Sequence record: PQ227709
Length of the DNA stretch: 40,175 nucleotides
Direction: 5' to 3' (one strand)
Source: Escherichia phage 536_P3
Positions 1,100-17,085 of the stretch are shown here, one piece after another. Within the stretch, counting starts at the first letter, position 1; each line of letters begins with the position of its first letter. Below the pieces are notes generated by a model that searched no databases, was not told where the DNA came from, and worked only from the letters and a program-made list of their open reading frames with translations. Both the position numbers and the translations under genes were made by a program.

Positions 1100-1558
1100 A
1101 TGATTTTCACTAAAGAGCCTGCTAACGTCTTCTATGTACTGGTGTCAGCTTTCCGTTCAAACCTTGATGATGAGGTTAACATGAGTCGCCACCGCCACAT
1201 GGTTAGCACTTTACGTGCCGCACCGGGTATTTATGGCTCCGTTGAGTCAACCGATTTGACCGGGTGCTATCGTGAGGCAATCGCAAGCGCACCGACTGAG
1301 GAAAAAACGGTTCGTGTACGCTGCAAGGACAAGGCGCAGGCACTCAATGTTGCACGCTTAGCTTGCAATGAGTGGGAGCAAGATTGCGTACTGGTATACA
1401 AATCACAGACTCACACGGCTGGTCTGGTGTACGCTAAAGGTATCGACGGGTATAAGGCTGAACGTCTGCCGGGTAGCTTCCAAGAGGTTCCTAAAGGCGC
1501 ACCGCTGCAAGGCTGCTTTACGATTGACGAGTTCGGTCGCCGCTGGCAGGTGGCCTAA
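1100..1558 (+). CDS. 0.3: S-adenosyl-L-methionine hydrolase/lyase (SAMase), anti-restriction gene 0.3 of the T3 type
   Basis: 152-aa ORF, ATG with GAGG RBS; sequence MIFTKEPANVFYVLVSAF...FGRRWQV matches my recollection of T3 SAMase; first gene after the early promoters. Confidence 0.9.
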   Translation: MIFTKEPANVFYVLVSAFRSNLDDEVNMSRHRHMVSTLRAAPGIYGSVESTDLTGCYREAIASAPTEEKTVRVRCKDKAQALNVARLACNEWEQDCVLVYKSQTHTAGLVYAKGIDGYKAERLPGSFQEVPKGAPLQGCFTIDEFGRRWQVA

Positions 1559-8793: not shown

Positions 8794-9269
8794 TGCTGCA
8801 ACATCATTGGAACAAACCAGACTTAGAGGCTCGCTTCCCGGTTAACTCTGTTGTGCGCTACTCTGGCGGTGGTCTCAAGCGCATCTTAGGTATGAGCGGA
8901 GTGGTCACTGGTCACTCGCACACAGGTCGCGTTAAGGTTCGCTTCGGTACTCAGAACGCTGAGGTTCTTCCTGACAACCTGATTCCGCTGCCTAAAGTAG
9001 GCCAGAACGTGGAAGCACCGAAGACAGAAGTCAAGTCTGACGTAACCCACCCTAACCACTACATGTTGTTCGACAACGTGGAAGCCATTGAGGTTATCGC
9101 CCGGTCAATGACCGTCGAGCAATTCAAAGGCTACGTGCTGGGAAACATCCTGAAATACCGTCTGCGTGCTGGTAAGAAATCAGAACTGGCAACGATGGAG
9201 AAAGACCTTAAGAAAGCGGCTTTCTATCAGGAACTGTTTGACAAGTATAAAGGTCTGTGCCATGCGTAG
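8793..9269 (+). CDS. 1.7: Gene 1.7 protein (nucleotide kinase family in T7), short form
   Basis: 158 aa; C-terminal HYMLFDNVEAIEVIARSMTVEQFKGYVLGNILKYRLRAGKKSELA matches recalled T7 gp1.7 C-terminus; TAATG coupling to 1.6. Confidence 0.8.
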   Translation: MLQHHWNKPDLEARFPVNSVVRYSGGGLKRILGMSGVVTGHSHTGRVKVRFGTQNAEVLPDNLIPLPKVGQNVEAPKTEVKSDVTHPNHYMLFDNVEAIEVIARSMTVEQFKGYVLGNILKYRLRAGKKSELATMEKDLKKAAFYQELFDKYKGLCHA

Positions 9270-9708
9270 AACCAATCCAACAACCGGACTACCGTTTAAG
9301 CGTGGCGATGTTCGTGAGGATGGCTACAGGTTTCTGACGTACCAGAAGAGTGTTGTCCGAAAGGATGGCACTTTCAAGGAAGTTTGGATTCATCCAGACA
9401 AGTACGAGGCAACACTGAAAGGAATCTCTAAGGCTGGCGTTAAGTGTCAGCGTGCTCGAAGGGCAAAGCAGAAGGTGTGGGTAGATGAATACAAAGTGTC
9501 TCGCGGGTGTGAGCGCTGCGGCTTCGACAGTCACCCTTCCGCCTTGGACTTTGACCACATGGACAGGAGCCTAAAGTCGTTTGAGATTAGCCAACACATT
9601 GGCCTAAAGTCTGACGATGAGTTGATGGCAGAAATCCAGAAGTGTAGAATCCTGTGCGCCAACTGTCACAGAATCAAATCGTTTGAGGAAGGAGACTATC
9701 TAAGATGA
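9262..9708 (+). CDS. HNH family endonuclease, putative free-standing homing endonuclease
   Basis: First ATG of track ORF 9166..9708, overlapping the 1.7 stop; motif CERCG...DFDHMDRSLKSF...ILCANCHRIK (CxxC...DH...N...CxxCH). Confidence 0.75.
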   Translation: MRRTNPTTGLPFKRGDVREDGYRFLTYQKSVVRKDGTFKEVWIHPDKYEATLKGISKAGVKCQRARRAKQKVWVDEYKVSRGCERCGFDSHPSALDFDHMDRSLKSFEISQHIGLKSDDELMAEIQKCRILCANCHRIKSFEEGDYLR

Positions 9709-9851: not shown

Positions 9852-10002
9852 ACAGAAGTACCTTCTGACGATTGAAGGTAACACCGAGTCCTTTGAGGTT
9901 CCGGTATTCGCCCGGTCTCTCGAAGAGGCAACGCTACAGGCTGAACATTACGAGGACGCTGGCTTCATTGTGAGCCGCATCCGTCCAGAAGTGAAAGCCT
10001 AA
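9838..10002 (+). CDS. 2: Gene 2 protein (inhibitor of host RNA polymerase)
   Basis: ...[38 protein letters not shown] resembles T7 gp2 (SFEVPIYAETLDEAL...GFEVTRVRP); inferred GTG start at 9838, 6 nt after AAGGAGG. Confidence 0.7.
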
Positions 10003-10026
10003 TTACCCTCACTAAAGGGAACAACC
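10003..10026 (+). promoter_or_regulatory. T3-type phage promoter (phi2.5)
   Basis: ttaccctcactaaagggaacaacc. Confidence 0.75.
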
Positions 10027-10054
10027 CAATCATTAACCACAAAGGAGAAACATT

Positions 10055-10756
10055 ATGGCTGGTTTCAAGAAGAAAATCTACACCTCTGGTCTTGGCACTG
10101 CTGAGCCTTATGCTTACCTGAGTAAGCCAGATTACGGCAACGAAGAGCGGGGCTTTGGCAACCCTCGTGGTATCTATAAGGTAGACCTGACTCTTTCCAA
10201 TAAAGACCCGCGCTGTCAGGCGATGGTCGATGAAATCGTGAAGACTCACGAAGAGGCTTATGCTGCTGCCGTGGAAGAGTTCGAGGCTAACCCGCCGCAG
10301 GCACAGCGTGGTAAGAAACCGCTGAAACCTTACGAGGGCGACATGCCGTTCTTCGATAACGGTGACGGTACGACTACCTTCAAGTTCAAATGCTATGCGT
10401 CTTTCCAAGACAAGAAGACCAAAGAGACCAAACACATTAATCTGGTCGTGGCCGATAGCAAGGGCAAGAAGATTCAGGACGTTCCGATTATCGGCGGCGG
10501 CTCTAAGCTGAAAGTGAAATACTCTCTGGTGCCTTACAAGTGGAACACAGCTGTGGGCGCAAGCGTCAAGCTGCAACTGGAGTCCGTGATGCTGGTCGAA
10601 CTGGCTACCTTCGGTGGTGGTGGCGGTGAAGATGAGTGGGCCGATGAAGTCGAAGATGGTGGTTACACTGCGAGTGAATCCCGTCAGTCCAGCGATGAGC
10701 AGGAGTGGCAGGAAGACGAGCACGAAGAAACCCCGGATGAGGATGAAGACTTTTGA
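10055..10756 (+). CDS. 2.5: Single-stranded DNA-binding protein
   Basis: 233 aa with acidic C-terminal tail ...EDEHEETPDEDEDF as in T7 gp2.5. Confidence 0.92.
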   Translation: MAGFKKKIYTSGLGTAEPYAYLSKPDYGNEERGFGNPRGIYKVDLTLSNKDPRCQAMVDEIVKTHEEAYAAAVEEFEANPPQAQRGKKPLKPYEGDMPFFDNGDGTTTFKFKCYASFQDKKTKETKHINLVVADSKGKKIQDVPIIGGGSKLKVKYSLVPYKWNTAVGASVKLQLESVMLVELATFGGGGGEDEWADEVEDGGYTASESRQSSDEQEWQEDEHEETPDEDEDF

Positions 10757-11208
10757 GTCGCCTGAACCGCGAACAACTGCAAGCTAAGATTCGTGCCAAT
10801 GTAGAACTGGAGGGCGACTGCTGGATTTGGCAGAAGTCCTTCGGTTCTCATGGATACGGTAACATAGGCACTGGTGGCGGTCGAAATGAGACCGTCCATC
10901 GGGTGTCTCATAAAGTGTTTAACGGAGAGATACCCAAGGGTCTGATTGTCTTACATAGCTGCGACAACAGGAAGTGCTGCAACCCGGCACATCTTCGAGC
11001 GGGAACTAGGGTTGACAACATGAAGGATGCCTTGCACCGCTCCCCAATAAAGCGCAAGCTGACACTGGAGGAAGCACAGGAGATTTATGATTCTAAGCTG
11101 TCACAAAGAAAACTCGCTGAACTCTATGGTGTATCTCAGAGATTAATCTGGAACATAAAGAGAGGTGTAGCATGGCAGCATATGGTGCAAAAGGAATCCG
11201 AAAAGTAG
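10753..11208 (+). CDS. HNH endonuclease with C-terminal helix-turn-helix, putative homing endonuclease
   Basis: 151-aa ORF with TTG start overlapping the 2.5 stop (no ATG upstream of the conserved core); motifs GDCWIW...GYG...HRVSH...LHSCDNRKCCNPAHL; C-terminal LSQRKLAELYGVSQRLIWNI HTH-like. Confidence 0.7.
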   Translation: MSRLNREQLQAKIRANVELEGDCWIWQKSFGSHGYGNIGTGGGRNETVHRVSHKVFNGEIPKGLIVLHSCDNRKCCNPAHLRAGTRVDNMKDALHRSPIKRKLTLEEAQEIYDSKLSQRKLAELYGVSQRLIWNIKRGVAWQHMVQKESEK

Positions 11209-11621
11209 GTTCCTTCCGTTCTGGACTTGAAGATAAAGTCCACAAACAACTGGAGGCTCGTGGTGTAAAGGCTGAATATGAAATGTGGAAGATTCCATAT
11301 GTTGTGCCAGCCAGTAATCACACGTACCGACCAGATTTTATTTTACCCAATGGAATCATTGTCGAGACCAAGGGACTTTGGGAAGCTGATGACCGGAAGA
11401 AGCACTTGCTCATCCGTGAGCAGTACCCTGAACTGGACATTCGTCTGGTGTTCTCTTCGAGTCGTACCAAAATCTACAAAGGGTCTCCAACTTCTTACGC
11501 TGAGTTCTGCGAGAAGAAGGGGATTCTCTTTGCCGACAAACTGATACCCGTCGAGTGGCTCAAGGAGCCTAAGCGGGAAGTACCGTGGGAGAAACTAATT
11601 CGTGTAAAGGAGAAAAAGTAA
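11172..11621 (+). CDS. 3: Endonuclease I (Holliday junction resolvase)
   Basis: MAAYGAKGIRKVGSFRSGLEDKV...PASNHTYRPDF... matches recalled T7 gp3. Confidence 0.93.
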   Translation: MAAYGAKGIRKVGSFRSGLEDKVHKQLEARGVKAEYEMWKIPYVVPASNHTYRPDFILPNGIIVETKGLWEADDRKKHLLIREQYPELDIRLVFSSSRTKIYKGSPTSYAEFCEKKGILFADKLIPVEWLKEPKREVPWEKLIRVKEKK

Positions 11622-12077
11622 ATGGCTAAAGTTCAATTCAAACCACGAGCAACCACGGAGGCAATCTTTGTACATTGCTCAGCAACCAAGCCAAGCCAGA
11701 ACATTGGCGTTCGTGAGATTCGTCAGTGGCACAAAGAGCAGGGCTGGTTAGACGTAGGATATCACTTCATCATCAAGCGTGATGGTACTGTGGAAGCAGG
11801 CCGCGATGAACTGGCTGTAGGTTCCCACGTGAAAGGTTACAACCACAACTCCGTAGGCGTATGCCTCGTTGGTGGGATTGATGATAAAGGCAAGTTCGAC
11901 GCCAACTTTACACCTGCGCAAATGCAAGCGCTGCGTAGTCTGCTGGTCACGCTGCTGGCGAAGTACGAAGGGTCTGTTCTCCGTGCTCACCACGATGTTG
12001 CACCTAAAGCCTGCCCGTCCTTCGACTTGAAGCGCTGGTGGGAGAAGAACGAACTGGTTACATCTGACCGAGGGTGA
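11622..12077 (+). CDS. 3.5: Lysozyme (N-acetylmuramoyl-L-alanine amidase; inhibitor of phage RNAP)
   Basis: 151 aa; MAKVQFKPRATTEAIFVHCSATKPSQNIGVREIRQWH... matches recalled T7 lysozyme. Confidence 0.93.
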   Translation: MAKVQFKPRATTEAIFVHCSATKPSQNIGVREIRQWHKEQGWLDVGYHFIIKRDGTVEAGRDELAVGSHVKGYNHNSVGVCLVGGIDDKGKFDANFTPAQMQALRSLLVTLLAKYEGSVLRAHHDVAPKACPSFDLKRWWEKNELVTSDRG

Positions 12078-12081
12078 TACC

Positions 12082-12188
12082 ATGAGGATGATTTGTATTC
12101 GATGTGATAAGCCGTTGAAGAGTCGTGTACCGTCACGTCAGTGTCAGTGCAAAGACCCAATCAAGGCGGAGGAACACACAGAGGAATA

Positions 12189-12189
<1 letters not shown>
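12082..12189 (+). CDS. Small Cys-rich protein (gene 3.7 position)
   Basis: 35-aa ORF MRMICIRCDKPLKSRVPSRQCQCKDPIKAEEHTEE translated by hand; GAGGG RBS. Confidence 0.5.
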
Positions 12190-14005
<1,816 letters not shown>

Positions 14006-16752: not shown

Positions 16753-17085
16753 ATGGGAGGCGTGGCTACACTAAGGTTCCACAATATGCCGACCGGGTGT
16801 GTAGTCTGCGTTTCACATAAGCGCAACCACGATGGCTACTTCCGGTACAGCGTAGGGTCGTCCAGAAAGGGCGAGAAGAAATGCTTCATGTTTCACCGAT
16901 GGGTTTGGGAGCAACACCGTGGGCCAATACCCGAAGGGTACGAGATAGACCACTTATGCCTGAACCGTGGGTGCTGCAACGTAGAACACTTGCAGTGCAT
17001 CCCGAAGCGTGAACACATAATCAAAACCAACAAAGAGCGCAAGCTCATAAAGGAGAAACATTATGGCAATGACCAAACACTTTAA
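16753..17085 (+). CDS. 5.3: HNH endonuclease (gene 5.3 position)
   Basis: 110 aa, AAGGAGG RBS; motif EIDHLCLNRGCCNVEHLQCIPKREH. Confidence 0.75.
   Translation: MGGVATLRFHNMPTGCVVCVSHKRNHDGYFRYSVGSSRKGEKKCFMFHRWVWEQHRGPIPEGYEIDHLCLNRGCCNVEHLQCIPKREHIIKTNKERKLIKEKHYGNDQTL

Follow-up and report, generated by a model that had tools for sequence, protein, structure and literature searches.

A predicted HNH homing-endonuclease gene of the T7 gene 2.8 type, with a TTG start, at the gene 2.5/gene 3 junction of Escherichia phage 536_P3

Escherichia phage 536_P3 (sequence record PQ227709) is a T3-like (Teetrevirus) phage, of which a stretch of 40,175 nucleotides, here called the window, was analysed. 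Between gene 2.5, which encodes the single-stranded DNA-binding protein, and gene 3, which encodes endonuclease I, the window carries an open reading frame (ORF) at 10753-11208. With a probability of about 0.8, this ORF is a free-standing, predicted homing-endonuclease gene of the HNH_3 class (His-Me finger, I-HmuI-like) and of the T7 gene 2.8 type. The original prediction, made from the sequence of the window, had described an HNH endonuclease with a C-terminal helix-turn-helix (HTH), probably read from a TTG codon that overlaps the gene 2.5 stop. It was silent on the identity of the gene as a member of the T7 gene 2.8 family and on the annotation that already exists in near-identical phages.

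A nuclease core followed by a predicted helix-turn-helix

The HNH_3-like motifs quoted in the original prediction are all present. Pfam assigns residues 48-90 to HNH_3 (PF13392), where the score of 48.1 bits (E=8.8e-13) exceeds the gathering cut-off of 24.8, and the His-Me zinc-loop family gives a weaker Pfam match that falls under its threshold. The PHROGs collection places the protein among HNH endonuclease families, with E values down to 1e-30, and nearly all of the 157 relatives recovered by a search of 5.8 billion proteins are HNH_3 proteins. The residues that make up the core are C23, W24, W26, G34-Y35-G36, H49-R50, H68-S-C70-D71-N72, C75-x-N77-P78-x-H80-L81 and N89. In an alignment of 65 relatives, C23, Y35, H68, C70, C75, N77, P78, H80, G84 and N89 are invariant, and W24, W26, G34, G36, H49, R50, D71, N72 and L81 are conserved in at least 90% of the sequences. 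The catalytic and metal-ligand residues of an HNH_3/His-Me finger nuclease are therewith present, each in a putative role.

Structure prediction supports the two-part architecture that had been proposed. An AlphaFold model built on the alignment of 65 relatives has a mean predicted local distance difference test (pLDDT) score of 90.7, and its first 50 residues are also confident; confidence is low only in the last 11 residues, where the score drops to 68 and then to 51. The model has the predicted beta-beta-alpha-metal fold, and its best matches among solved structures are I-HmuI, then I-PpoI, then HTH domains. I-HmuI is the HNH nicking endonuclease of Bacillus phage SPO1 (PDB 1U3E), and the layout of the window protein resembles it because a His-Me finger nuclease core is followed by a small predicted HTH. 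The two proteins are ~20% identical, and I-HmuI is intron-encoded, whereas the gene described here is free-standing. Owing to the different arrangement of the domains, TM-scores to I-HmuI are no higher than 0.35-0.39. I-HmuI was reached by fold comparison; a sequence search against solved structures yielded nothing beyond a marginal HTH match with a phage repressor (E=0.29).

Proteins of this general design are common. A scan of IMG/VR with the single protein returned one locus, and a scan with the alignment returned 80 distant genes that combine HNH_3 with an HTH, in unrelated contexts. The HNH_3 plus HTH family is very large, and the IMG/VR matches are uninformative about the site between genes 2.5 and 3. 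An HNH protein that partners terminase in DNA packaging was also considered as an identity for the ORF and was ruled out: the protein is of the HNH_3 class with an HTH, and its gene, which most relatives lack, is located in the DNA-metabolism region, a long way from terminase.

A polymorphic site linked to an allele of gene 3

Presence or absence of the gene varies at one conserved site among close relatives. A 151-nucleotide probe spanning the empty 2.5/3 junction matched 103 records, and the comparison with relatives lacking the insert, which had been put forward as a check, found the empty junction intact in 71 of them, including T3, phiYe-F10 and phiSG-JL2. The other matched records align with one half of the probe only. 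Those that carry a nuclease allele match the left half as far as the gene 2.5 stop, and the ones inspected hold allele A, B or C. Occupied genomes thus contain at least three HNH alleles, all at the same site and with sharp edges, which are 46-50% identical to each other at the amino acid level. Allele A is the type found in the window (nine records); allele B encodes 156 amino acids from an ATG start and occurs in SH1, ESh8 and others; allele C encodes 158 amino acids and occurs in LL2 and others. The state of the site differs among phages listed with the same host or source. Among Pantoea phages, F1M1C is empty, F2M1C carries allele A and F5M1C carries allele B. Of the Citrobacter phages, SH1 has allele B and SH2 is empty, and of the Klebsiella phages, mtp1 and mtp14 have allele A while mtp8 and mtp15 are empty.

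Sliding identity comparisons set the nuclease gene apart from its surroundings. Against empty-site phages, genes 2.5 and 3.5 of the window are 95-100% identical, whereas the whole of gene 3 is 55-82% identical in nucleotide sequence. Against Patroon, allele A is 98-100% identical, and the next ~80 nucleotides of gene 3 are 68-82% identical. Against ESh8, an allele-B phage, the relation is turned around: gene 3 and the flanks are 95-100% identical, and the nuclease ORFs are 45-77% identical. The identity of the element is therefore uncoupled from that of its flanks, which would be a sign of recent lateral movement.

Gene 3 of the window type (at least 92% nucleotide identity) was found in exactly 20 records, and all 20 carry allele A or allele B. 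The next-best gene 3 matches are two records at 86%, of which the one inspected, Klebsiella phage 5OI88, has a B-like ORF in the slot; all others lie below 77%. The gp3 proteins of A or B carriers share 74-77% identity with those of empty-site phages, compared with 97-99% for gp2.5. This linkage suggests a cassette made up of the nuclease gene and gene 3. Complete linkage and edge-precise allele swaps are the trace expected of a free-standing homing endonuclease that targets its own neighbourhood, although they are not proof of one. Because the gene 3 alleles differ by ~30% throughout, the cleavage target is not identifiable from sequence.

The gene 3 types can also be told apart by length and position. 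The window type encodes 149 amino acids, abuts gene 3.5 and occurs only beside an HNH gene. The T3 type, found at empty sites, encodes 153 amino acids and overlaps gene 3.5 by 8 nucleotides, and LL2 has a third type.

T4-type free-standing homing endonucleases target a neighbouring gene, as in the pairs SegF/gene 56, SegG/gene 32 and MobE/nrdB. The likeness lies in an intergenic, selfish nuclease gene next to a divergent, presumably cut-resistant allele of an essential gene, with presence varying among close relatives. Unlike the HNH_3 gene here, the Seg proteins belong to the GIY-YIG nuclease family. In the window it is the linkage that points to gene 3 as the candidate target.

A TTG start built from the gene 2.5 stop

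The junction of gene 2.5 and the nuclease ORF reads GAC TTT TGA. The TTG start (10753-10755) combines the final T of the Phe codon (TTT) that closes gene 2.5 with the TG of the TGA stop (10754-10756), giving a 4-nucleotide overlap, TTGA. A start further 5ʹ is impossible because of an in-frame TGA at 10744-10746, 9 nucleotides 5ʹ of the TTG. The next in-frame canonical start 3ʹ of the TTG is a GTG at codon 51, within the conserved core. A Shine-Dalgarno-like GAGGA lies within the codons for the acidic tail of gene 2.5 (Table 1), and the Patroon record has a ribosome-binding site annotated at the equivalent position.

The TTTTGA arrangement is kept in all 12 homologs inspected (58-99% identity), in four different gene 2.5 C-terminal contexts. 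The set consisted of seven allele A copies (the window and six GenBank phages), two Przondovirus copies (69%) and three metagenomic copies (90, 85 and 58%). All seven allele A copies are intact and share an identical ...TTTTGAGTCGCC... junction. The Przondovirus and metagenomic copies also lie between the genes for the single-stranded DNA-binding protein and endonuclease I and have the TTG start in TTTTGA, with different preceding codons. In empty-site phages, and likewise with alleles B and C, the gene 2.5 stop is TAA, so that the G which gives rise to the TTG is specific to this lineage. GenBank annotators chose the same TTG start in Patroon, phage 31, F2M1C, 10164-302 and KP13MC5-2. Comparison therefore supports TTG 10753, the sole canonical start available, as the probable start of the ORF, and the extent and start codon originally proposed both hold.

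At the other end, the predicted overlap of 37 nucleotides with gene 3 proved exact. The gene 3 ATG is nested in GCA TGG (11170-11175), the codons for Ala140-Trp141 of the nuclease, and the gene 3 ribosome-binding site falls on the K-R-G codons with which the HTH ends. The last 11 residues of the HNH protein (WQHMVQKESEK), modelled with low confidence, are gene 3 sequence read in another frame, and this tail varies among alleles only as far as gene 3 varies. Where the site is empty, the gene 2.5 TAA and the gene 3 ATG share bases as TAATG; in carriers, the TTG in TTGA of the nuclease ORF would take over the coupling to gene 2.5 from gene 3. The same nesting, with the gene 3 ATG on an 'nnA TGG' pair whose second codon is Trp, is seen in alleles B and C and in the Przondovirus copy but not in T7.

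Selection on the two domains

In comparison with the Przondovirus copy, the whole ORF is 69% identical in amino acid sequence, with a proportion of synonymous differences (pS) of 0.70, a proportion of non-synonymous differences (pN) of 0.23 and a ratio of non-synonymous to synonymous substitution rates (dN/dS) of ~0.13. The ORF is a real gene rather than a chance reading frame, given this ratio and its intactness in all seven allele A copies. The signal differs between the two parts of the protein. Residues 17-86 of the nuclease core are 93% identical, with pS 0.81 (synonymous sites saturated) and pN 0.07, whereas residues 87-140, which comprise the linker and HTH, are 45% identical, with pS 0.68 and pN 0.40. 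Strong purifying selection on the core and fast divergence of the HTH form the pattern expected of an active nuclease with a DNA-recognition module that tracks its target.

Relation to T7 gene 2.8 and to annotated copies

T7 gene 2.8 is a fourth relative in this slot, where it follows the gene 2.5 stop directly and runs into the start of gene 3. Its product, gp2.8 (139 amino acids), has the same HNH_3 core and C-terminal HTH and also begins at a non-ATG codon (GTG). The T7 2.8 ORF lies at 1069-1488 of L007 and was matched by tblastn (E=5e-12), residues 53-135 being 46% identical. By sequence and position, the window protein belongs to the T7 gene 2.8 group as a syntenic homolog. The two differ in several respects: overall amino acid identity is 38%, gp2.8 is 12 residues shorter, its HTH sequence is different, and its ORF follows a TAA stop without the TGA overlap. 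T7 gene 2.8 has been handled as one of the homing endonucleases of T7 (10.1101/2025.09.07.674715), and allele B has been described as a homing endonuclease that SH1 has and SH2 lacks (PMC4925675).

Allele A itself has been annotated before. In Klebsiella phages Patroon (QBQ72883.1) and 31 (QGH73729.1) and in Pantoea phage vB_PdeP_F2M1C (UNA05195.1), the same gene is recorded as an 'HNH (homing) endonuclease', and in Leclercia phage 10164-302 (ATA65258.1), the same coding sequence is recorded as a 'hypothetical protein'. These copies differ from the window at 5-10 of 456 nucleotides and have the same TTG start, stop and neighbours; the window protein is distinguished by a few substitutions (K54, V139 and others). 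Unlike Patroon and F2M1C, the window combines allele A with the gene 3 background otherwise seen with allele B. The gene is thus already known, annotated in near-identical genomes with the same start, and counts as a routine selfish element among T7/T3-like phages.

Proposed mechanism and alternative explanations

Ribosomes that finish gene 2.5 would re-initiate at the weak TTG, which would give low, coupled expression of the nuclease. Re-initiation at a weak start that follows a heavily translated gene is the natural reading. The HTH would read a specific DNA sequence, and the core would nick or cut the DNA of relatives without the gene, either in the T3-type gene 3 or at, or close to, the empty 2.5/3 junction. 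In a mixed infection, repair would copy the nuclease gene, together with a cut-resistant allele of gene 3, into the rival genome. A more specific form of this mechanism is tentative and would be put below even odds: the mobile unit may be a two-gene cassette of ~890 nucleotides (~10733-11621), consisting of the HNH gene and a cut-resistant allele of the essential gene 3, which replaces the T3-type gene 3 of co-infecting relatives. Under this proposal, three alleles with different HTHs would compete for the slot, the cassette would act as a weapon of interference competition, and binding by the HTH might also blunt host defences that sense DNA breaks, an effect reported for other homing endonucleases of T7.

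Several points weigh against the identification as a homing endonuclease. Cleavage, nicking, the target site and homing are all inferred, and a literature search found no biochemical characterisation of T7 gp2.8 or allele A. The HTH_psq match at residues 113-138 scores 18.7 bits, under its cut-off of 20.4. Use of the TTG is a conclusion from comparison, as is translational coupling, which is a reasonable one. About half of the 20 variable sites within allele A are non-synonymous, which may reflect recent relaxed constraint. Additionally, the edges of the divergent tract (~10733 and ~11621) are sharp, without a gradient of co-conversion, and the tract could be a module swapped by ordinary recombination with no action of a nuclease.

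This last point leads to a broader alternative, in which the gene and its linked gene 3 are a module spread by ordinary homologous recombination among T7-like and T3-like phages, with a nuclease that is inactive or irrelevant to the distribution. The sharp edges do match gene limits, one where gene 2.5 ends and the other where gene 3.5 starts, and Studiervirinae genomes are mosaic elsewhere in the region, for example in bins 8800-9000 and 12200. However, the catalytic and zinc-ligand positions are invariant in the 65 homologs, and in the core pN is 0.07 against a pS of 0.81. Three HNH alleles occupy exactly one site, and allele A is found on two gene 3 backgrounds with breakpoints at the ORF edges, the pattern of nuclease-driven exchange. 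An explanation by recombination of a passive module is accordingly regarded as distinctly improbable. Somewhat better placed, though still unlikely, is the idea that the protein is kept mainly because it benefits the phage, by blunting a host defence that senses DNA breaks or by interfering with co-infecting phages, so that DNA binding matters more than homing. According to a 2025 preprint, HNH homing endonucleases of phages weaken GAPS4 immunity even without catalytic activity, and a T7 mutant lacking 2.8, 3.8 and 7.7 is outcompeted by the wild type only when GAPS4 is active (10.1101/2025.09.07.674715). The gene is also intact in every carrier examined, with its core under strong purifying selection. 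Yet the strongest constraint falls on the nuclease core and not on the HTH, which argues that catalysis matters, and ~70% of the matched relatives do without the gene. Moreover, that preprint covered gp3.8 alone and the triple deletion, never gp2.8 alone (10.1101/2025.09.07.674715), and a benefit to the phage is compatible with homing.

A different kind of alternative concerns the product and not its function: the nuclease might be produced fused to gp2.5, if tRNA-Phe slips by -1 on the run of T at the gene 2.5 stop, or from an internal start, instead of by re-initiation at the TTG. Relative to gene 2.5, the HNH ORF is in the -1 frame, the junction consists of four or five T followed by the stop, and several homologs have GAT TTT TGA, which would allow perfect re-pairing after a -1 slip. 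The window has GAC TTT, where re-pairing would be imperfect, and the junction offers neither an X XXY YYZ heptamer nor an obvious stimulator. Furthermore, in alleles B and C and in T7 2.8 the stop is TAA and the ORF after it begins with an ATG or GTG of its own, and an internal start at codon 51 would drop the conserved and confidently folded C23, W24, W26 and G34-Y35-G36. On these grounds, both the frameshift fusion and the internal GTG were rejected as the main product and are considered highly improbable, which leaves the free-standing HNH_3 gene started at TTG 10753 as the preferred identification.

Phage background and neighbouring genes

Genes of the T3/T7 family lie in canonical order across the window. 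The closest phages in the collection searched are Teetrevirus of Klebsiella, Pantoea, Leclercia, Citrobacter and Shigella, at ~95% identity. The window also encodes an S-adenosylmethionine lyase of the T3 gene 0.3 type, a hallmark of T3-like and not of T7-like phages, and contains 14 T3-type promoters against 0 expected. Between 10021 and 12188, no phage promoter was found; the next T3 promoter is at 12189. The promoter search found no sigma-70-like site of the HNH gene's own, and the terminator-like hairpins around the gene are weak and mostly on the wrong strand. Because 10021-12188 holds no promoter, the HNH gene belongs, with genes 2.5, 3 and 3.5, to the transcription unit that starts from the promoter at 10001. 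The positions of the features discussed are collected in Table 1.

Table 1. Features of the window in and around the nuclease gene, with positions in the whole stretch
Feature	Position	Strand	Basis or remark
S-adenosylmethionine lyase gene, T3 gene 0.3 type	1100-1558	+	Pfam E=2.7e-42
HNH endonuclease ORF, gene 1.7 / genes 1.8-2 interval	9262-9708	+	148 amino acids from ATG; PHROG 3106 E=2e-37
T3-type phage RNA polymerase promoter, 5ʹ of gene 2.5	10001-10020	+	AATTACCCTCACTAAAGGGA, 2 mismatches to T3 consensus
Gene 2.5, single-stranded DNA-binding protein	10055-10756	+	Pfam SBB_T7 E=9.9e-87
Shine-Dalgarno-like GAGGA	10739-10743	+	9 nucleotides 5ʹ of TTG, within gene 2.5 acidic-tail codons
Predicted free-standing HNH_3 homing-endonuclease gene, T7 gene 2.8 type (allele A)	10753-11208	+	151 codons; TTG start, TAG stop at 11206-11208
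Nuclease core	10801-11022	+	Residues 17-90; conservation in 65 homologs
C-terminal three-helix HTH, putative DNA-binding domain	11065-11160	+	Residues 105-136
Gene 3 ribosome-binding site GAGAGGT	11160-11166	+	K-R-G codons at HTH end; annotated in Patroon and LL2
HNH/gene 3 overlap, 37 nucleotides	11172-11208	+	Sequence
Gene 3, endonuclease I	11172-11621	+	Pfam Phage_endo_I E=2.1e-80; ATG at 11172; 55-78% nucleotide identity to empty-site phages, flanks 95-100%
Third HNH gene (HNH_3), gene 5.3 position, directly 3ʹ of the DNA polymerase gene	16753-17085	+	110 amino acids, E=4.5e-19

The gene had been called the second HNH gene of the phage, and in gene order this is correct, with one such gene before it and one after. 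The first, in the gene 1.7 / genes 1.8-2 interval, has a Pfam HNH score slightly under threshold, and its top match in the phage collection is only 61.5% identical in amino acid sequence. The segment at ~9260-9700 is missing from all 10 aligned Teetrevirus relatives; Yersinia phage phiA1122 has a 60% relative at the equivalent place. The window's HNH ORF at 9262-9708 is rarer than the gene at the 2.5/3 junction. The third HNH gene, at the gene 5.3 position, is without a C-terminal HTH. Patroon (L094 36-452 and 1569-1868) and LL2 (L098 1404-1877) have extra annotated HNH genes near the ligase gene 1.3 that are not in the window. Nuclease-gene content varies at several slots among these phages.

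Mosaic patches are also seen outside the 2.5/3 site. In bin 8800 (gene 1.7; patch 8800-9000), the window is 65-76% identical to most relatives and 94-95% identical to Patroon, ESh8 and SH2. In bin 12200 (patch 12200-12400), it is 69-72% identical to mtp14 and Patroon and 98-100% identical to the others. These two patches imply frequent recombination in the early and middle region.

Significance

Beyond correct annotation, the importance of the gene is small. Two comparative details are of some value, namely that the TTG is kept in distant homologs and that the nuclease gene is strictly linked to one gene 3 allele, at a site that may be empty or hold any of three alleles. The TTG, built from the last sense codon of the upstream gene and its TGA stop, is a clean and comparatively validated example of a start that automated gene callers can miss. 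For engineering these phages, it matters that the 3ʹ end of the HNH ORF holds the ribosome-binding site and start codon of gene 3. The 2.5/3 junction is a natural three-allele-plus-empty polymorphism and would make a convenient test system for homing and interference competition in T7-like phages.
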